This document shows positions 6,687 to 28,367 of a DNA stretch of 64,000 nt, piece after piece (within the stretch, counting starts at the first letter, position 1; each line of letters opens with the position of its first letter). A model generated the notes under the pieces. It made no database searches. It was given only the letters and a program-made list of their open reading frames with translations, and had not been told where the DNA came from. The stretch is from an uncultured bacterium (GTDB taxonomy: Bacteria; Desulfobacterota; DSM-4660; Desulfatiglandales; JALVMZ01), in the NCBI GenBank assembly GCA_965613025.1, contig CBFDUE010000003.1, positions 3,363 through 67,362 of the forward strand, written 5' to 3'. Position numbers and translations under genes: made by a program.

Positions 6687-7953
6687 TATTATCTCTCCCA
6701 GATAAGATCTCTTTTAGGTTATCTATGAGATTATCCATATAGATCTCCTGCTGATTCCCCTCCTTCATATCCCGAAATATCACCTTACCCTTTTCAAGCT
6801 CATCCTCTCCTACAATAACAGCTGCCTTTGTTCCCATCTTATCTGCCATCCTGAGTTGAGCCTTTAAGCTCTTAGGACTATAGCTCATCTCTGCCCTTAT
6901 ACCATTATCCCTTAGAAGCATCATCCATCTTGTCCCTATCCTTTTAGCCCTATCACCCAAACAGGCAATAAAGATATCTGGAAGGATTAGAGCAGGCTTT
7001 AGATCATCACTGATAAGCGATATAAGCCTTTCCATTCCAATTGCAAAGCCTATGGCAGGTATTTCAGGCCCACCCAGTGTCTTGATAAGTCCGTCATATC
7101 TGCCACCACCCACAATCGCATTTTGGGCACCCAAAGAGGAACTCTGAATCTCAAAGGCAGTTCTTGTATAATAGTCAAGACCTCTTACAAGTCTGGGATT
7201 TAGCTCATATTCCACCCCATTTTCCTTTAACATATCTAAGAGATTCTGTAGATGAGCCTTACATTCAGGACACAGAAAATGAAGGATATTGGGAGCCTTA
7301 TCCATTGCATCTCTGCAATCAGGCATCTTACAATCAAATACCCTAAGAGGATTACTGTCTGCCCTTCTTTTACAGTCTATACATAGGGTGTCTTTAACCG
7401 TCTTTAAATATCCGATAAGTTCTCTCTTAAAGAGGCCTCTACAGTTGCTACATCCAATGGAATTGATATATAAGGTAATATCTTTAATTTGAAATATCTC
7501 CATGAGCTTCATGGATACCACTATGATTTCCATATCAGATAGAGGACCAGGATCACCTAATATTTCCGCATTCAGTTGATGAAACTGTCTGAATCTGCCC
7601 TTCTGTGGTCTTTCGTGTCTAAACATGGGACCAATGGTATAGAGCTTTAGGATCTGGGATCTATTATAGAGCCTATTTTGAATATATGCCCTGACAATGG
7701 ATGCGGTGGCTTCAGGTCTAAGTGAGATGGATCTTCCCTTTGAATCCTTGAAGGAGTACATCTCTTTACTTACAATATCAGTCTCTTTTCCGATGCTCCT
7801 TTTAAAGAGTTCTGTATATTCTAAAATTGGGGTTCTGATCTCTTTAAAGCCATGCAGGTGAAAGATTTCCCTTGCCTTTGATTCAACCCACTGCCAAAGT
7901 CCTGTTTCTTCTGGTAAGATGTCCCTAAACCCTTTAATTGCGCGGATTTCCAT
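6673..7953 (-). CDS. hisS: histidine--tRNA ligase
   Basis: 426 aa. Class II motifs (MFRHERPQKGRFRQFHQ, GGGRYDGL) and a C-terminal anticodon-binding domain. Overlaps aspS by 14 nt. Confidence 0.95.
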   Translation of the reverse strand: MEIRAIKGFRDILPEETGLWQWVESKAREIFHLHGFKEIRTPILEYTELFKRSIGKETDIVSKEMYSFKDSKGRSISLRPEATASIVRAYIQNRLYNRSQILKLYTIGPMFRHERPQKGRFRQFHQLNAEILGDPGPLSDMEIIVVSMKLMEIFQIKDITLYINSIGCSNCRGLFKRELIGYLKTVKDTLCIDCKRRADSNPLRVFDCKMPDCRDAMDKAPNILHFLCPECKAHLQNLLDMLKENGVEYELNPRLVRGLDYYTRTAFEIQSSSLGAQNAIVGGGRYDGLIKTLGGPEIPAIGFAIGMERLISLISDDLKPALILPDIFIACLGDRAKRIGTRWMMLLRDNGIRAEMSYSPKSLKAQLRMADKMGTKAAVIVGEDELEKGKVIFRDMKEGNQQEIYMDNLIDNLKEILSGRDNNGSN

Positions 7954-7958
7954 GGTTA

Positions 7959-8168
7959 TTATCTTACTTCAATCTTCTGGGCATCTATATTCTTTTTGTC
8001 AACGGATTCAAGCTGTGTGATTCTGAGATCAATTAAAGATCTAAATGCCTTAAGAAACTCTATCTTTGACTGTCTAAGATGTCTTCTAAATTCTGACTCT
8101 GAGCCAAAAGCCTGATTTACGATACTAATTATCTTAGTAAGTGGACAGGATACCTGCTCATTTTTCAT
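7959..8168 (-). CDS. hypothetical small protein (69 aa)
   Basis: ORF lies 5 nt upstream of hisS on the same strand. No recognisable motif. Confidence 0.4.
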   Translation of the reverse strand: MKNEQVSCPLTKIISIVNQAFGSESEFRRHLRQSKIEFLKAFRSLIDLRITQLESVDKKNIDAQKIEVR

Positions 8169-8337
8169 GACCTATCACACCTCCTTTATAAAGATTTGGA
8201 CTTTTTATATTTTCTTATATTATCCTTCTTTTGATCAATGGAATATTTTTAGTATCATAAATTTTAGCTTGAAGAGGGACTATTTTTAAAGAGAAATGAC
8301 TGATATTATTAAAATTGATAGTAAAACAATTCTTTAA

Positions 8338-9552
8338 TCAGCCCTCTAAGAATCTGATCTCTAAATGATCCTCTCTCCATTTTGCAGTGATATCCTTTGC
8401 TGAAAACACCTGGCGTGGTAAGGGAATATGTCTTTTAAATGCACCTATCCTAACTACTAATTCATCTTCTATACGGTTTAACTCTATATCTTCCTTCTCT
8501 ACAAATGGAAGGGTAAGCCTTAGAATATAACAATGATCCTCTTTTTTAAGACTATATGGATCTCCTCTATAGAAGTGCTCTAATGGGTCTCTATCCCCAT
8601 ATAACCTATCGGCCAGCTCCCTTAGCCTGTCATAGCCCAATGCCTCGGATTTCATTAGATCCAGATAGAATATAGGAATAGGGTTGAAAAATTCCTGAAC
8701 CCTCTTTATATAGCCATCTTGGACTCTAAGCCAATCCTTAAAGAATTCCGTATTAGACAGGGATATATCAGGTATAATCTTGTTAATTATGATACAATCT
8801 ATGTTCATATGATATAGATAAAAATACATTAATGCCCTCTGTGTCTCTTTTATAACCACCTTTTCAGGATTGGTTATAAGTCTTACTGAGGTGATGGTGC
8901 GATTTAGCAGGATCTCATTTATTCCTTTAAGCCTGTTAAAGAGTCTTTCAATAGAGTCAAAATATTCCTGATCTGGGATGGGCACATCATACAGCCTCTT
9001 TAGCACTCCCCCAGCATATCTTGCAATTGCCCTTTCCATCTTAAATATCTTTTTCATATACCACTCTAAGGTAGTAGGAATACTTATGAAACGGATGGAT
9101 TCTCCAGTTGGTGCACAGTCAAGAATAATTACATCAAATAGGGATTCCTTTACATACTTGTTAATATATAACAGAAGACTTACCTCTTCCATTCCAGGGA
9201 GAATGGCAAACTCCTCTGCCAATACCTCATCTAACCCGGTGGTATTTAGAAGTCGTGTAAGATACCTATGGATCTGTCCCCAGTTTCTCTCTATCTCCTC
9301 AGATATATCTATCTCCTGAATCCAGAGATTCTCTTCTACCTGAAAGGGCTTTCCCCTGTTCTGATCCAAGAGGCCCTTTTCAAGGTCAAATATATCAGAG
9401 AGGCTGTGAGCGATATCTAAGGAGATTATGATTGTCCTGTATCCTAAGGAGGCACTCTTTATACCAGTTGCAGAAGATACTGTTGTCTTTCCTACCCCGC
9501 CTTTTCCGGCAAAAAAGATTATCCTTACTCTTCTATCCATACAGATAGACAC
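8338..9552 (-). CDS. ArsA/GET3-family ATPase with C-terminal HSP20-like domain
   Basis: Deviant Walker A GKGGVGKTT near the N-terminus. The C-terminal ~100 aa (YILRLTLPFVEKEDIELNRIEDELVVRIG...) resemble an alpha-crystallin-like fold. The start may be the internal ATG at 9540. Confidence 0.8.
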   Translation of the reverse strand: MSICMDRRVRIIFFAGKGGVGKTTVSSATGIKSASLGYRTIIISLDIAHSLSDIFDLEKGLLDQNRGKPFQVEENLWIQEIDISEEIERNWGQIHRYLTRLLNTTGLDEVLAEEFAILPGMEEVSLLLYINKYVKESLFDVIILDCAPTGESIRFISIPTTLEWYMKKIFKMERAIARYAGGVLKRLYDVPIPDQEYFDSIERLFNRLKGINEILLNRTITSVRLITNPEKVVIKETQRALMYFYLYHMNIDCIIINKIIPDISLSNTEFFKDWLRVQDGYIKRVQEFFNPIPIFYLDLMKSEALGYDRLRELADRLYGDRDPLEHFYRGDPYSLKKEDHCYILRLTLPFVEKEDIELNRIEDELVVRIGAFKRHIPLPRQVFSAKDITAKWREDHLEIRFLEG

Positions 9553-19975: not shown

Positions 19976-20935
19976 CATATGTCTTGAACATCTCCTCGGA
20001 TATATTATCCCCTTTTGAATAATCCTCTTCTTTTTTTCAATGGTATGTCTCAGAACCTCCACAAGCTCTTGATCGCTTTTTCCGTTTCTAAGCATGTATC
20101 TAAGATCCACCTCAGAGTCAGAAAAGAGGCAGCTCCTGAGGCCACCTTCGGCTGTAAGACGAAGCCTGTTACAGTTTTTACACTGATGTCCTGTCATGGT
20201 TTCGATAATTCCGATCTCTCCTATGGAATCTTTTATCTTAAATCGCCTTGCAGGACCAGAGTAAGGATCTGAAGGTATCTCAATTAGTTTACCATATCCC
20301 TTTACCCTTTCCAAGATCTCTCTACCGGATATGAATCTTTTAGGATCCCACCTGTTGTTTTCTCCAATGGGCATAAATTCTATAAATCTTATATGAAAAG
20401 GCCTTTTAAATGTAAGTGAGATAAAATCTTCCAATTCATCATCATTTAGCCCTTTCATTACCACTGTATTTATCTTTACCGGATCAAATCCCTGATCTAA
20501 CGCCTCTTCAATCCCTTCCCAGACATCACGGAAGTGGTCTCTGCCTGTTATCTTCTTATATCTATCCGCTCTCAGGGTATCTAAGCTTATATTAATTCTC
20601 TCTATACCACACCTTTTAATGTCCTTTGCAAATCTCTTAAGCAATACCCCATTGGTGGTAAGGGATATATCGACGAGTTCAGGAATCTCCCTTAATCTAC
20701 ATAGAAATCCTATAATCCCTCTTCTTAAAAGGGGCTCTCCACCAGTGAGCCTTACCTTTCTTATCCCCACCTGGATAGATAGACGCACCACTCTTAGTAA
20801 CTCTTCATAGGTCAATATCTCTGAATAAGGCACAAATCTTATTCCTTCCTGGGGGACACAATAGATACACCTCAGATTGCACCTATCTGTAATTGAGAGC
20901 CTAAGATAGTTTATCCTATGTTCATATTCTTTCAT
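19958..20935 (-). CDS. moaA: GTP 3',8-cyclase (Moco biosynthesis protein A)
   Basis: Radical-SAM CNLRCIYC motif and a C-terminal second-cluster Cys triad (CKNCNRLRLTAEGGLRSC). Confidence 0.9.
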   Translation of the reverse strand: MKEYEHRINYLRLSITDRCNLRCIYCVPQEGIRFVPYSEILTYEELLRVVRLSIQVGIRKVRLTGGEPLLRRGIIGFLCRLREIPELVDISLTTNGVLLKRFAKDIKRCGIERINISLDTLRADRYKKITGRDHFRDVWEGIEEALDQGFDPVKINTVVMKGLNDDELEDFISLTFKRPFHIRFIEFMPIGENNRWDPKRFISGREILERVKGYGKLIEIPSDPYSGPARRFKIKDSIGEIGIIETMTGHQCKNCNRLRLTAEGGLRSCLFSDSEVDLRYMLRNGKSDQELVEVLRHTIEKKKRIIQKGIIYPRRCSRHMSSIGG

Positions 20936-21987
20936 GTTCTATTAAAGAGATCTTCCTGCAATCTGAATCCGGTATCATTCTTCAGGTCATCTTCATCTGG
21001 TATAATACCCTTTAAAAAGAATCTGTCATATACCCTGCTAAAACCTGTCCAGAGCCCTTCATTTCCATCTGTTTCAAAGAATCTGTATATACCATTTATC
21101 TTGGCATCTATCTCATCTACTAAATGGAGAACAACAGCTTCAAGTATTTTAGGCCTCTTTGGAGAGCCAAATTCATATTCTCCGTGATGGCTAAGGATAA
21201 GATGTTTCAGTTTAAGTATGAGATCCTTAGGTATCTTATCAATATGTCTGATCTTTTCTTCCAACATGGAAATTCCCAATATCAGGTGTCCCAATAGTCT
21301 TCCCTCATGGGTATAGTCAAAATGTAGATCATATTGATATTCCTTTATCTTTCCAATATCATGTAGAAATGCCCCACACAACAGCAGTTCCCTATCTAAG
21401 AATGGATATAGCTCTGATATCTGGGTGCACATCTTCATAACATTTAGGGTATGCTCAAGCAGGCCACCAAGATATGGATGATGAAGGTTTTTGCCCGCTG
21501 GTGCTCTTTTAAAAGAAGTCATAAAATCTGAGTCTTTGAGAAACTCATCTATAATGAATTGAAGATATGGATTTTTAATCTGTCCTAAGATATCCTCTAA
21601 TTCTTTCATCATCTGAGAGATATCTTGAGAGGTGCTTTCCAGAAATACAGATGGATCAATCTTCCCTTTATGGGGTCTTATCTCCTTTATGTTTAGTTGG
21701 ATAGAGTCCTTAAAATATGTTACATATCCTTCAATATGGATAACATCCCCCTCTTTAAACTGGGCTGATAGTTCTTCCACCCTATCCCATACCCTGGCCT
21801 CAATCTGACCTGTCTTATCAGAGAGGATCATGCTCAGATATGGGTCCCCCTTTTTTGTTAACATGGATCTCTTACTCTTGACCAGATAGGACTCCTTAAC
21901 CCAGGTGTCAACCTTTATATCCCTTATCCAGATTCTGTAATTTTTATTGGTCTCTCTTTCAGTCATCATAGTCACCGGCTTTTCCAT
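20932..21987 (-). CDS. YhaM-like 3'-5' exoribonuclease (OB-fold + HD domain)
   Basis: N-terminal OB fold and a C-terminal HD domain (LEHTLNV...FLHDIGK...SHHG). Confidence 0.7.
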   Translation of the reverse strand: MEKPVTMMTERETNKNYRIWIRDIKVDTWVKESYLVKSKRSMLTKKGDPYLSMILSDKTGQIEARVWDRVEELSAQFKEGDVIHIEGYVTYFKDSIQLNIKEIRPHKGKIDPSVFLESTSQDISQMMKELEDILGQIKNPYLQFIIDEFLKDSDFMTSFKRAPAGKNLHHPYLGGLLEHTLNVMKMCTQISELYPFLDRELLLCGAFLHDIGKIKEYQYDLHFDYTHEGRLLGHLILGISMLEEKIRHIDKIPKDLILKLKHLILSHHGEYEFGSPKRPKILEAVVLHLVDEIDAKINGIYRFFETDGNEGLWTGFSRVYDRFFLKGIIPDEDDLKNDTGFRLQEDLFNRT

Positions 21988-24110: not shown

Positions 24111-26003
24111 TTATGGCCTCTTAACTATCCTTATATCTGCTCTCCCTTTTACTGAAGTAAGCCATTCAGCAAGAAACAGGTTATACTTTGAAAACATAAG
24201 GGTCTTAAAAAGCTCTGCCCTCTCTTCTTTAAATAGCTCTTCCTCTGGAAGCCGCTCATCTAATAATCTAAATATCAATGCCCCATTTTTGTCTCTAAAA
24301 GGCCTATCAGGATAGGGCATATGTCTTGAAAGGGAAAATATCTCATCTACTATCTCTTCTCTATAGCCTATTTCAGATGGTGGCTCCCCCCTTTTAAAAA
24401 AGCCTGTCTCTTTTGACTCAACCTTTAATTCATCTCTAATTGCTTCCCAGCTTTGACCTTTTTTTAATCTTTCAAGGGCATCTCGTGCAATCTTTAAGGC
24501 CTTCTTCACAGAAAGCTCATCTTTTAAGTCTTCTTTTACCTTTGTTATCACCTCTTTTAGATCTGGAATCCGTGAAGGTATCTTTTTTAATACCTGAAAG
24601 ATATAAAACTTACGATCAATCTCAAGGACATCACTTATACATCCTTCTTCAAGAGAAAAGAGTGTATCTTTTATATCTTCACTAATGCTGGGATTGTAAA
24701 TTGGGTCATCTTTTGAAAATGGATTGAGCTTAGAGTATCTTACTTTGCTTTCCTTTGCGTAATCCGATAGATCCGTTTCATAGGGCATATGATCCCATAA
24801 CTCCACAGCCTTTTCATAGGCAAGCTCTTGAGCTTTTCTCTCTTTGAGTATCTCTCTTATCTCTTCTCTTACCTCTTCAATAGGCCTAATCCTCTTCTCT
24901 TTTATATCTTCTACCTTTATTATATGATATCCAAAACGTGTCTTAACAGGCCCTCTTATCTCACCCTTTTTCATGGAAAATACCGCATCTTCAAACTCCT
25001 TTACCATCTGACCCCTGCTGATATATCCCAGCTCTCCTCCCTGTTTGGCAGAAGGCCCTTCAGAATATCTCTTTGCAAGTCTGGCAAAGTCCTCCCCCTC
25101 CTTTGCCAACTTTAATATCCTCTCTGCCTTCTTTCGTATCTTATCTTTCTCCTCTTCTGATGCTCCCTCCTTTACTTTTAAAAGTATGTGCCTTACCTTT
25201 ACCTTCTTCTCTTCAATAAATTGTTCCATATTCTCTTCATAATAGTCCTTTATCTCTTCTTGGGTAATTTTTACCCCTTTTTTAAATTCATCAGGATCTA
25301 TATCTAAATAGGCAACTTCAATCTTTTCAGGAATTCTATATCTTTCCCTATTCTCTTTAAAATATTTTTCAATAGCCTCTTGATCCGGTTTTATATCCTC
25401 TATGAACCTGCTCTTAGGTATCTCCATAATCTCAATCTTTACTTCTCTATTTTTGATATAAAAATAGTCTTTAAGCTCTTTCTCTGTAACTGGAGTAAGT
25501 GATATAAGGATTTGGGATAATTTATCCTTTAGTATCTGCTGAGCCACCCCTTTTTCAAACTCTGGGGGATCCATGTGATTCTGCTCTAATATCTGTCTAT
25601 ATCTTGCCATACTGAAACGTCCTTTTATCTGAAAAAGGGGATAATTTAAGATGGCATGCTGAATCTCATTTTCATTGACATCCAGCCCTAATCTCCTTGC
25701 CTCTTGACTGAGAAGCTTTTGATCAATAAGCTCCTCTAATACCTTTTCTCTTAGATTCAGCCTCTTGATCATCTGATCATCCCATAGCTTTCCCAATCTT
25801 CTCTGAAGCGCCTGAATCCTTTCCATATATAGTTTCTGAAACTCTCCTCCACTTATTACCTCTCCATTTACATAGGCGATCTTAAGTCCCTCTCTTGAAC
25901 GAAAGGAATAGCCAAAATAGAAGATAAAGACTATGGTAATCATTCCTATAATGAACTTAATCAACCACGACTTAGCATGCCTTCTCATCATCCCAAGTAT
26001 CAT
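24111..26003 (-). CDS. PpiD-like membrane-anchored periplasmic chaperone / parvulin PPIase
   Basis: N-terminal TM anchor, SurA_N-like region and a parvulin domain (VRHILLKV...[12 protein letters not shown]...[12 protein letters not shown]). Confidence 0.8.
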
Positions 26004-26012
26004 AACTGTCCC

Positions 26013-26225
26013 CTATGCCTTTGCCCTTTCATAGAGCTGTTCAGGGGTAAAACAGGCTGAACAGTTTTTACCCCATAAGGTAAAAGTGTTATTCTCTTTA
26101 TAATGTAAGATATCTGTATAGCCATCCTGCATCATCCTCTTTAATACATGGACATGAACCTGGACTCCATCAATATTAACCTGCTCATTATCCCCTCTAC
26201 CTTTTATTAATTCTTCAATCTTCAT
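26013..26225 (-). CDS. hypothetical small protein (70 aa)
   Basis: ORF packed between the DAC-like gene (3-nt gap) and the PpiD-like gene (9-nt gap). No motif recognised. Confidence 0.4.
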   Translation of the reverse strand: MKIEELIKGRGDNEQVNIDGVQVHVHVLKRMMQDGYTDILHYKENNTFTLWGKNCSACFTPEQLYERAKA

Positions 26226-26228
26226 CCT

Positions 26229-26900
26229 CTACCCCTCCTTTAAGGATTTTTTACTAACCACAGTAAGATTATGAGAACTTTTACGAGTAAATCTTCCTTT
26301 CAGATGATGGCTATAGCGGCTTATCATCCAGATTTCAGGAATTATCTCAGAGACCAGCTCTCCATCATCAAATATCCTTACTATAGAGCTTTCTGATACC
26401 ACCACTGCAACAGCAGAGGTCTCCTTGGTAATGGATGCGGCCGCCATATGTCTGCTTCCAAAACCTAAGGGGAGATTAATGCCATCAGATGAGGCATTTA
26501 TATACCTGCATGCAGAGATTACTACTCCTTCATCAGATACGATAAATGCACCATCCAATTGTGCCAGCTCTTTTATGGTCTCCCTCATATTGGGATCATC
26601 AATTCGTTTAAGATTGTCAGGATGTCCTTTCAGTGGATCAAGTATAATGCAACGGGATCTCTTTAATACCTCCTCAGAGTCAGAGACCACAAAGAGAGTG
26701 CCTATCTTCCTCCCCTCCCTTCCCTCCCTTGCAATCTCTAAGGAAAGGATGAGAACCTGTTCCAAAGTGAAGAGATTTATCTCTCTATCCTGACAACATA
26801 CATCTTTTAAAAGCTCTATAGCCATATAACATATAAAAGATGCATAATCTATAATTAGAATCAATAATAAAAAATGGGATTGGATCAAATCCAATCCCAA
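26229..26900 (-). CDS. DisA_N / diadenylate-cyclase (DAC)-domain protein, variant RHM motif
   Basis: By eye it aligns with the CdaA DAC domain: GTLFVV, LDGAFIV (DGA motif), ISACRYINAS, FGSRHMAAASIT (RHR motif position) and VVVSESS. The N-terminus has one hydrophobic segment. The start could instead be the ATG at 26825. Confidence 0.65.
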   Translation of the reverse strand: MGLDLIQSHFLLLILIIDYASFICYMAIELLKDVCCQDREINLFTLEQVLILSLEIAREGREGRKIGTLFVVSDSEEVLKRSRCIILDPLKGHPDNLKRIDDPNMRETIKELAQLDGAFIVSDEGVVISACRYINASSDGINLPLGFGSRHMAAASITKETSAVAVVVSESSIVRIFDDGELVSEIIPEIWMISRYSHHLKGRFTRKSSHNLTVVSKKSLKEG

Positions 26901-26909
26901 ACAGACTCC

Positions 26910-27281
26910 CTAACCCTCTATCTTTATCTTATGAGGTGTTGCCTCTTTTATCTTTGGAAGAGTAATACGCAGAACACCATTTTTAAGTTCTGCCTCTATG
27001 TCTGTCTGATCCACTATGGGTGTAAGGACAAATTCCCTCCTATATCTTTCAGTATCAATCTCCCTGAGTATATAATTCTGTGTATCATTCCTATTGACCT
27101 TACCATCTATGGATAGGATATTGTCCTTAACTTCCACTGACAGATCCTCTGTCTTTACTCCAGGAAGATCTGCCAATATGGTAATTGAGGTATCATCTTC
27201 AAATATATCAACCCTGGGTTTGGTAGTATAATAGGCCCTTCTCTTATATCTTTCCACTTTCTTCATATCCATCACCTCCAC
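26910..27281 (-). CDS. Hsp20/alpha-crystallin family small heat-shock protein
   Basis: Alpha-crystallin domain (VDIFEDDTSITILADLPGV...AELKNGVLRITLPK). Confidence 0.85.
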   Translation of the reverse strand: MEVMDMKKVERYKRRAYYTTKPRVDIFEDDTSITILADLPGVKTEDLSVEVKDNILSIDGKVNRNDTQNYILREIDTERYRREFVLTPIVDQTDIEAELKNGVLRITLPKIKEATPHKIKIEG

Positions 27282-27287
27282 TTCATC

Positions 27288-27731
27288 TTAGCTTTTAACA
27301 GGTATCTGCTTTGGCTTAGCCTTATCTGATTTGGGAAGTTTCAGATACAATATCCCATCTCTTAATGAGGCATCAGCACTCTCTGGATCTACCTCCACAG
27401 GAAGAGAGACAGCTCTGCTAAATCTTCCCCTCTCTATCTCCTTTCTGAAGAATCTGAGCTCATCACCTTCAACACCATCTCTTCTTTCTCCCTCTATTAT
27501 TAAGGTATTCTGATTTATGGAAAGATCAATATCTTCCGGACGAACACCAGGAAGCTCTGCCTCTACATAGATACAATCCCTATCTTCAGTGATATTTAAG
27601 GCGGGATACAATCCCACCTCTCCTTCTTCTAAAAAACTTCTACCTAAGTCATCAAATAGCCTATCAATCTCTCTTCTAAGCTCTTCAAACTCCCTAAAAG
27701 GATCCCTTAATTCAGATCTTACCTGTGCCAT
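27288..27731 (-). CDS. Hsp20/alpha-crystallin family small heat-shock protein
   Basis: PALNITEDRDCIYVEAELPGV...ERGRFSRAVSLP...ASLRDGILYLKLPK. Confidence 0.9.
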   Translation of the reverse strand: MAQVRSELRDPFREFEELRREIDRLFDDLGRSFLEEGEVGLYPALNITEDRDCIYVEAELPGVRPEDIDLSINQNTLIIEGERRDGVEGDELRFFRKEIERGRFSRAVSLPVEVDPESADASLRDGILYLKLPKSDKAKPKQIPVKS

Positions 27732-27765
27732 ACCTTCCCCCTCCTTATAATGGATTTTTTTAGAA

Positions 27766-27793
27766 AAAATAATTTTGTTTAGGTGTATGTCAA
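27766..27793 (-). promoter_or_regulatory. putative sigma-70-type promoter for the Hsp20-Hsp20-DAC-like operon
   Basis: On the minus strand: TTGACA (27793-27788), 16-nt spacer, TATTTT (27771-27766). About 35 nt upstream of the ATG at 27731. Confidence 0.45.
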
Positions 27794-27908: not shown

Positions 27909-28367
27909 GTGATGGCGATGTTAGAACTGATACCCTGGAGGGAGAGAAGAGAGCTTGACAGATTCAGAAGAGAGATGGACAGACTCTTTGATGAATTCTT
28001 TGAGATGAGACCTCTGAGAAGGCTGTTTGGTGAAGGTGAGTGGATACCCTCTGTGGATGTATCTGAGAATCCTAAGGAGATAGTTGTCCATGCTGAAGTT
28101 CCTGGTATTGATCCAAAGGACATTGATATAACAATTCATGGGAGGACTCTGACCCTTAAAGGGGAAAAGAAGAGTGAAAAAGAGGAAAAGGATGTAAATT
28201 ATCATCGTATAGAGAGGAGATATGGCTCTTTCACCAGAACCTTGGAGCTTCCTACTGATGTGGATCCTGACAATGCAAAGGCAACTTACAAAGATGGGGT
28301 ATTAAAACTGGTCATTCCTAAGACAAAAGAGCAGGCAGTTAAAAAGATAGAGGTTAAGAGCGGTTAA
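27909..28367 (+). CDS. Hsp20/alpha-crystallin family small heat-shock protein
   Basis: PSVDVSENPKEIVVHAEVPGI...ERRYGSFTRTLELP...ATYKDGVLKLVIPK. The track start is GTG at 27909; ATG at 27912 or 27918 is equally possible. Confidence 0.9.
   Translation: MMAMLELIPWRERRELDRFRREMDRLFDEFFEMRPLRRLFGEGEWIPSVDVSENPKEIVVHAEVPGIDPKDIDITIHGRTLTLKGEKKSEKEEKDVNYHRIERRYGSFTRTLELPTDVDPDNAKATYKDGVLKLVIPKTKEQAVKKIEVKSG

Follow-up and report, generated by a model that had tools for sequence, protein, structure and literature searches.

A predicted stand-alone DacZ-lineage diadenylate cyclase beside small heat-shock genes in a putatively thermophilic Desulfobacterota genome

The 64,000-nucleotide stretch analysed here (the window; contig CBFDUE010000003.1 of the Desulfobacterota assembly GCA_965613025.1) carries five co-directional open reading frames (ORFs) on its minus strand between 27731 and 24111. 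The middle one encodes a protein of the diadenylate cyclase (DAC) family, the synthases of cyclic di-AMP (c-di-AMP). Coordinates were taken from the ORF listing and domain identities from Pfam and NCBIfam profile searches. They agree with the initial annotation of this DNA as to the coordinates of the five genes and as to their products: two HSP20 proteins, a DAC protein with the motifs LDGAFIV and GSRHMAA, a 70-aa ORF and a PpiD-like protein. The TTGACA-N16-TATTTT site that it had placed ahead of them is likewise present at 27793-27766, a call that reflects resemblance to the consensus and is not proof of function, and the third, divergent Hsp20 gene that it had described nearby lies at 27909-28367 on the plus strand. 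The features are as follows.

27909..28367, plus strand: third Hsp20 gene, divergent, 152 aa (PF00011, 86.7 bits)
27766..27793, minus strand: candidate sigma-70-like promoter, TTGACA-16-TATTTT, consensus match 10/12, upstream of Hsp20a
27288..27731, minus strand: Hsp20a, small heat-shock protein, 147 aa (PF00011, 71.8 bits), with a strong AAGGAGG ribosome-binding site
26910..27281, minus strand: Hsp20b, small heat-shock protein, 123-aa ORF as listed (PF00011, 73.1 bits)
26865..26899, minus strand: terminator-like hairpin with an 11-bp stem and a 3-nt loop, then TTTTTTATTA, between Hsp20b and the DAC start
26229..26900, minus strand: DAC ORF as listed, 223 aa, TTG start (longest-ORF call)
26229..26825, minus strand: predicted stand-alone DacZ-type diadenylate cyclase, 198 aa (PF02457, 76.5 bits; tree; AlphaFold2 model)
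26013..26225, minus strand: ORF70, conserved small protein, 70 aa (codon-pattern conservation against the same-genus relative L007)
24111..26003, minus strand: PpiD-like membrane-anchored periplasmic chaperone / parvulin peptidyl-prolyl isomerase, 630 aa (SurA_N_3, 151.5 bits, and Rotamase, 120.4 bits)

The initial annotation had assigned the middle gene to the DAC family and proposed a profile search and a structure prediction as checks, both of which bear the assignment out. The Pfam DAC profile matches well above its cut-off (76.5 versus 27 bits) over profile positions 3-118 of 119. An AlphaFold2 (AF2) model of the protein, built on an alignment of 60 family members, has a pLDDT of 85.7 and a pTM of 0.86; when it was compared with the PDB by Foldseek, all 50 matches listed were DisA, CdaA/DacA, CdaM or CdaS, with TM-scores of 0.63-0.67 on the target and a probability of 1.00 for the top hits. 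The best NCBIfam cyclase model is DacZ (NF041371), which aligns over profile positions 127-268 only, its C-terminal half, and whose equivalog cut-off of 430 bits the window protein does not reach (134.1 bits). The CdaA, DisA, CdaM and CdaS models score 19-31 bits. For CdaA (TIGR00159) this means 25.2 bits against a cut-off of 188.8, with the three N-terminal transmembrane helices missing, and for DisA (NF010009) 22.1 bits against 201, with no linker or HhH domain, the protein ending ~35 aa after the DAC domain. In a maximum-likelihood tree of DAC domains, the window protein falls in a clade of stand-alone ~200-aa proteins, both bacterial and from ANME-1/Methanosarcinales (SH-aLRT 100), which is nested in the DacZ/CdaZ superclade (SH-aLRT 99), far from the DisA/CdaA outgroup.

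In the window protein Pfam finds only the DAC domain, with no DACZ_N or DacZ_P domain at the N terminus, whereas a haloarchaeal DacZ carries DACZ_N (195.6 bits) and, within the window's own order, a relative of 355 aa carries DacZ_P. The window protein thus falls short of DacZ on two points that define it: its score stays below equivalog level, and the sensor domain at the N terminus is missing. Its own clade has an N-terminal Cys motif in the alignment and, at the other end, positions 163-191 that are private to it in the family profile; they belong to a C-terminal tail (residues ~163-198) of about 35 aa, predicted in the AF2 model to form a beta-hairpin. Because 34 of the 44 nucleotide differences from the same-genus relative (L007) fall at third codon positions, the DAC gene appears to be under purifying selection. 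The family is large: at least 7,782 of 8,000 candidates scored match at E<=0.001, the best with 65-81 % identity across phyla, and members of ~196-200 aa are annotated as 'diadenylate cyclase / DisA N-domain protein' or 'DAC domain-containing protein' in Desulfobacterota, Chloroflexota, Calditrichota, Acidobacteriota and ANME-1. The window protein has the same length and the same tail as these entries and differs from them in nothing but its neighbourhood (the Hsp20 pair, ORF70, PpiD and the operon for the osmolyte DIP), which is particular to its genus. We thus read it as a further member of an already known subfamily, with catalysis predicted. Hits in Planctomycetes (L072-L086) were considered as members and set aside, as they fall in a different clade of the tree with a 452-aa protein. 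A predicted bacterial class, 'DacC' (Corrigan & Gruendling 2013), has listed representatives that are mostly deltaproteobacterial (PMC6741144, Fig. A1 legend); the stand-alone family may match a class of this kind.

The gene as listed appears to be over-extended at its 5' end. The 119 homologues listed (P0002-P0120) cover just 82-88 % of the 223-aa ORF, and all but one of them are 189-230 aa long (118/119; the exception has 322 aa). In the 60-sequence alignment, homologues begin around ATG 26825. The 75 nt between TTG 26900 and this ATG hold an 11-pair hairpin at 26899-26875, followed by TTTTTTATTA in the terminator scan. Over 4.5 kb, L007 shares 93.7 % nucleotide identity with the window; it keeps the hairpin stem and the T-run, the latter with one nucleotide deleted, which shifts the first nine supposed codons out of frame. 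Homologue lengths, alignment start, hairpin and frame shift together argue for a start at ATG 26825 rather than TTG 26900, so that the DAC gene would span 26229-26825 (198 aa) and an 84-nt spacer would part it from Hsp20b. The initial annotation had granted the protein at most one N-terminal hydrophobic helix; even this one disappears, as the stretch FLLLILII... reads as the translated T-rich tail of a terminator, that is, as probable noncoding spacer, and the homologues have no such extension. A CdaA-like membrane anchor, the other reading of the hydrophobic N terminus, is rejected on the same ground.

The catalytic motifs of the protein are L90-D91-G92-A93-F, G123-S124-R125-H126-M127 and S144-E145-S146. 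The second departs from the canonical RHR (GxRHRxA), reading GSRHMAA with Met at the third position, and had been taken as a possible sign of a degenerate or sensor domain. That suspicion does not survive comparison with DacZ itself: all 14 haloarchaeal DacZ proteins retrieved above the 430-bit cut-off have G[AT]RHM[AS][AG], along with LDGAF and SESDG, and DacZ of Haloferax volcanii, the type enzyme of the family, makes c-di-AMP in vitro with Mn2+, the nucleotide being present in cells (PMC6741144). Because all 14 of these DacZ equivalogs carry RHM and the type member is a proven cyclase, we read the motif as normal for the DacZ lineage, not as a mark of degeneracy. The third position is in any case variable across the DacZ-like branch, being L, A, M, V, I or W among 150 representatives (50 % identity clusters) and Arg in just 6 of them, and RHM stands in 112 and DGA in 119 of the 120 listed stand-alone family proteins, the window's own included. 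Residues D91, G92, G123, R125, H126 and S144 are invariant in the alignment of 60 diverse members. In CdaA, ATP is contacted by the side chains of L131, D171, T202, R203, H204, S222 and E224, plus main-chain atoms, and the second Arg of GxRHRxA is not among the contacts listed (PMC7288161). The window equivalents are L44, D91, S124, R125, H126 and S144. As in the family at large, two DAC domains would meet face to face, each binding ATP via L44, D91 (of DGA), S124-R125-H126 and S144-E145, and the product would be c-di-AMP with two pyrophosphates, probably with Mn2+ as in H. volcanii DacZ.

Set beside the characterised cyclases, the protein stands closest to DacZ of H. volcanii (NF041371; DACZ_N plus DAC) and CdaZ/DacY of Methanocaldococcus jannaschii, which share its branch of the DAC tree. 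It resembles them in LDGAF, G-x-RHM-A and SES, in being soluble and in its best NCBIfam profile match; it differs in being without the ~125-aa N-terminal DACZ_N / DacZ_P (PK_C-like) sensor domain, in its score against the DacZ cut-off, in its own ~35-aa C-terminal tail, which DacZ does not have, and in the SESS of bacterial members where DacZ has SESDG. With CdaA/DacA (Listeria, Bacillus, Staphylococcus) it shares the DAC fold (TM-score ~0.65), DGA, the T/S-R-H phosphate-binding residues and a role as main or sole c-di-AMP synthase paired with PgpH. It departs from CdaA in lacking a membrane anchor of three helices, in having neither CdaR nor GlmM as a nearby partner and in reading RHM in place of RHR. 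DisA (Thermotoga, Mycobacterium) has the same DAC fold and provides the top Foldseek matches, 9y4s and 9y9y, yet the window protein is without its linker and HhH DNA-binding domain. In ANME-1 relatives, a Hef repair helicase-nuclease gene after the DAC gene recalls the DNA-repair context of disA.

The initial annotation had also suggested a look for other cdaA/disA genes and for c-di-AMP phosphodiesterases in the genome. The gene at 26229-26825 is the single DAC match in the window's genome (2.75 Mb, 98.64 % complete), and a PgpH of 803 aa with the full 7TMR-HDED, 7TM-7TMR_HD and HD architecture is encoded elsewhere in it. PgpH is found too in the same-genus, same-family and L009 genomes (G155, G156 and G004). 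Nor does a second DAC accompany the stand-alone protein in the genome of the same genus or in two genomes of ANME archaea, and two larger Desulfobacterota metagenome-assembled genomes (MAGs) have further canonical DAC genes in addition to it. Four proteins with an RCK_C domain are encoded in the window's genome. In four unrelated lineages (L012 at 7812-8984, L019, L061 and L080; Calditrichaceae, Anaerolineae, Caldilineales and Fimbriiglobus), an immediate neighbour of the stand-alone DAC gene codes for a DHH/DHHA1 phosphoesterase, a candidate for the cognate c-di-AMP phosphodiesterase. At L008 (8001-11864), DAC and Hsp20 are followed by a CitMHS/SLC13-type transporter with four TrkA_C (RCK_C) domains, a plausible c-di-AMP-gated target next to the cyclase. 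Because of the sole DAC, the PgpH, the DHH/DHHA1 neighbours and this TrkA_C transporter, the genome context fits a working c-di-AMP system with the DAC gene as its putative synthase. This thermophilic Desulfobacterota MAG most likely has no c-di-AMP synthase other than the stand-alone DAC. The PgpH-type phosphodiesterase would degrade the nucleotide, and RCK_C and CBS proteins are candidate receptors; possible targets encoded in the window include a ClC channel with four CBS domains (33334-35541) and the DIP enzymes.

Two further proteins of the window's genome may be mentioned beside this system. One is a fusion of DHH, DHHA1, two CBS domains and a poly(A) polymerase/CCA-adding head (G000:C10; L087:1435-3432, where it runs off the locus; open frame ~906 aa), whose DHH/DHHA1 part could be a second nucleotide phosphodiesterase. 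The other, at 20932-21987 on the minus strand of the window, ~2 kb beyond the end of PpiD, is an OB-fold and HD-domain protein with the architecture of a YhaM-like 3'-5' exoribonuclease. HD phosphohydrolases include c-di-AMP- and pApA-degrading enzymes; nothing ties this one to c-di-AMP.

Several observations weigh against a functional cyclase gene read from ATG 26825. Ser146 aligns with the metal-binding Glu224 of CdaA, a substitution that DacZ shares, and the bacterial members, having SESS, miss the Asp that follows Ser in the SESDG of DacZ, a caveat for metal binding. No Shine-Dalgarno sequence precedes ATG 26825, and GGGAG lies 5 nt upstream of TTG 26900. The promoter scan gave no convincing promoter in the 84-nt spacer, so that the DAC gene may need read-through from the Hsp20 promoter to be expressed. 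Searches of the genome found no c-di-AMP riboswitch (Rfam) and no DarA/PstA receptor, and the literature searched reports no assayed enzyme of the stand-alone clade. Weighing these points against the profile, tree, fold and residue evidence, we think it likely that the product of the gene at 26229-26825 is a soluble diadenylate cyclase of 198 aa from the DacZ/CdaZ lineage, which has lost or never had a sensor domain and bears a short family-specific C-terminal tail.

The initial annotation had pictured the DAC gene as embedded among chaperone genes, and physically this is so: three of the four Hsp20 genes in the window's genome flank the DAC locus. To what extent the association is conserved was assessed at 85 loci from public genomes and metagenomes, with flanks of up to 6-8 kb fetched per side. 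Among them, Hsp20 occurs in four lineages only. In the same-genus relative (L007, genome G155) the arrangement is the same as in the window, with ORF70, PpiD and the DIP genes all present. A second lineage, L002/L003/L009 at 81 % identity, has HtrA ... 3xHsp20-orf124-DAC-Zn-ribbon-FtsH; at L008 (75 % identity), Hsp20 follows DAC; and one ANME-1 contig has a convergent Hsp20 gene. The full gene order is found in the same genus only. In an even phylum sample, 17 of 401 genomes carry a stand-alone DAC orthologue, and none of the 16 others besides the window's has Hsp20 within 7 kb of it. Over about 100 loci in all, Hsp20 linkage is limited to the four lineages named. Neighbour clustering over the 85 loci gave no recurrent partner gene, nor did a Pfam tally of the 85 genes directly adjoining DAC at 45 bacterial loci (ACR_tran 5, HAD 3, HSP20 2, DHH 2). 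The proposed synteny thus narrowly escapes being unique to the window. The clustering with proteostasis genes appears real but confined to the closest relatives, a probably lineage-specific feature and not a conserved functional module, and the DAC-ORF70-PpiD-DIP arrangement looks genus-specific. We keep a functional link between the DAC gene and proteostasis open at low probability, because three of the four Hsp20 genes lie here and the L002 lineage repeats the theme with FtsH and HtrA. A heat or osmolyte link of the DAC gene is speculative, and the literature search for c-di-AMP with Hsp20 or heat shock in thermophiles returned nothing relevant.

Elsewhere the gene keeps other company. At L114, a short contig from another genus of the same family, DAC has a basic protein of 116 aa on one side and on the other, 14 nt downstream, the gene for a KamA-like lysine-2,3-aminomutase radical-SAM enzyme (L114:1009-2115). 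KamA-type enzymes are associated with the osmolyte N-epsilon-acetyl-beta-lysine in methanogens and with EF-P modification. A shared upstream partner was considered and rejected, the 124-aa ORF of L002 being unrelated to the ORF upstream of DAC in L114. The DAC neighbourhood of ANME/Methanosarcinales is far more conserved than any bacterial one: at 35 archaeal loci within L035-L071 (ANME-1 / Methanosarcinales), the stand-alone DAC gene and a gene of the GHMP-kinase family are divergently oriented, and at 14 of the ANME-1/Methanosarcinales loci a gene for a Hef-type helicase and ERCC4 nuclease follows the DAC gene. Two ANME-type DAC genes contain an in-frame stop. At L036:8040 a TGA falls precisely on the conserved N-terminal Cys, where relatives read K-C-D/N-P-E, and at L039:8199 a TAG occupies a Glu/Val position. 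Sequencing errors, pseudogenes or recoding (selenocysteine for Cys) could each account for them.

The initial annotation had proposed one operon of five genes separated by 6, 9, 3 and 9 nt. The gaps of 3 and 9 nt downstream of DAC hold, whereas the 9-nt gap before it is an artefact of the TTG 26900 start and really measures 84 nt, so that from Hsp20a to PpiD the revised gaps are ~6 (or 21), 84, 3 and 9 nt. The terminator-like hairpin now parts the Hsp20 pair from the DAC gene. The best reading of the locus, as we infer it, has two transcription units: Hsp20a-Hsp20b would be transcribed from behind TTGACA-N16-TATTTT and end at the hairpin terminator, and DAC-ORF70-PpiD would form the second unit. 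No sigma-54 promoter was matched between positions 24 and 28 kb, and no Rfam family was found in the window. The nearest-neighbour free energy of the hairpin weakens from -15.6 kcal/mol at 37 C to -6.4 at 70 C, and is about -4 to -6 kcal/mol over 70-80 C. The fraction of I, V, Y, W, R, E and L residues (IVYWREL) is 0.435 over 1,463 long ORFs of the window's genome. A regression of optimal growth temperature on this fraction, reportedly that of Zeldovich et al. 2007, gives an estimated optimum near 72 C, which agrees with the DIP operon next door. Since the hairpin is only marginally stable at ~70 C, some read-through across it would be possible at growth temperature, and we infer that termination may be leaky and temperature-dependent.

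This marginal stability also speaks for the alternative that survives best, in which all five genes form a single heat-shock operon behind the one TTGACA-N16-TATTTT promoter, DAC is translated from TTG 26900 with a membrane helix, and c-di-AMP synthesis is built into the heat-shock response. The genes are co-directional, the spacer has no clear internal promoter, GGGAG stands 5 nt before TTG 26900, three of the genome's four Hsp20 genes flank DAC, and in the relative at 81 % identity no terminator-like site interrupts the order 3xHsp20-orf-DAC-ZnR-FtsH. However, the hairpin and T-run sit exactly within the supposed coding extension, the extension is missing from homologues and carries a frame-shifting indel in L007, its hydrophobic 'helix' is the expected translation of a T-rich terminator tail, and the Hsp20 linkage is missing in 16/16 other phylum members sampled, so that we consider the single operon unlikely. 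A little less likely again is that the hairpin acts as a temperature-sensitive attenuator, by which c-di-AMP synthesis would be wired to heat stress transcriptionally in this thermophile and its nearest relatives: heat would induce the Hsp20 promoter and melt the terminator, with read-through into DAC-ORF70-PpiD. If true, this would tie c-di-AMP to chaperone production and, via its targets, to how the cell takes up or makes thermo-osmolytes such as DIP, the genes for which are close by.

Two further alternatives concern the chemistry of the protein and not its expression. It could be an active cyclase that makes something other than c-di-AMP, for instance another cyclic or a linear dinucleotide, and serves a pathway outside osmotic homeostasis. 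In favour of this, the clade is uncharacterised and has both a C-terminal tail of its own and an N-terminal Cys motif, and the genome shows no canonical riboswitch or DarA receptor; yet the residues contacting adenine, ribose and phosphate match CdaA and DacZ, PgpH co-occurs, DHH/DHHA1 enzymes adjoin the gene in other lineages, and PADLOC gave no defence match and hence no defence-system signature, which together make a different product improbable. Least probable of all, if by little, is a pseudo-enzyme whose degenerate DAC domain serves as a nucleotide sensor or regulator: RHM in place of canonical RHR, Ser at the position of the metal-binding Glu224, the missing sensor domain and a very high conservation (65-80 % identity across phyla) that could reflect a binding surface would suit it, but RHM and SES also occur in the DacZ equivalogs, a family with a type member of demonstrated cyclase activity (PMC6741144), the remaining ATP-contact residues do not vary, and as the sole DAC of a genome that keeps PgpH it would leave, with no other synthase, nothing to sense or degrade.

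Hsp20a has 98.9 % nucleotide identity to L007. For Hsp20b, the listed start is GTG 27281, and ATG 27266 behind GGAGGTG is the more likely one. The PpiD-like protein matches NF008054 (PpiD) over its full length (profile 5-627) at 228 bits, below the 493-bit equivalog cut-off, and has the PpiD architecture of a SurA_N-type chaperone domain, a parvulin domain and an N-terminal anchor. ORF70 differs from L007 at 11 nt, and because 9 of the differences are synonymous it appears to be a real gene under purifying selection. It has an invariant motif, WGxxCxxCFT, and an AF2 model with a pLDDT of 93.4; searches gave no Pfam match and no fold match in the PDB (best E 0.47). Homologues are present in 21 of 61 genomes of the order, where they follow ABC-2 transporter genes (L144-L151) and are not near DAC, PpiD or Hsp20. 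Elsewhere, then, ORF70 is not a partner of DAC or PpiD.

Taken together, our analysis corrects an over-extended gene call in which an apparent transmembrane helix is a predicted terminator, and indicates that RHM in DacZ-type cyclases should not be taken for a dead active site. A connection with heat shock and DIP would be of interest but rests on a lineage-restricted gene arrangement. More broadly, the window protein represents a very large family of sensor-less predicted c-di-AMP synthases that extends across bacterial phyla and ANME archaea and would be the only cyclase of some thermophilic sulfate-reducer-like bacteria and of methane-oxidising archaea. For so minimal a cyclase, the candidates for regulation are the C-terminal tail, the N-terminal Cys motif or transcription.

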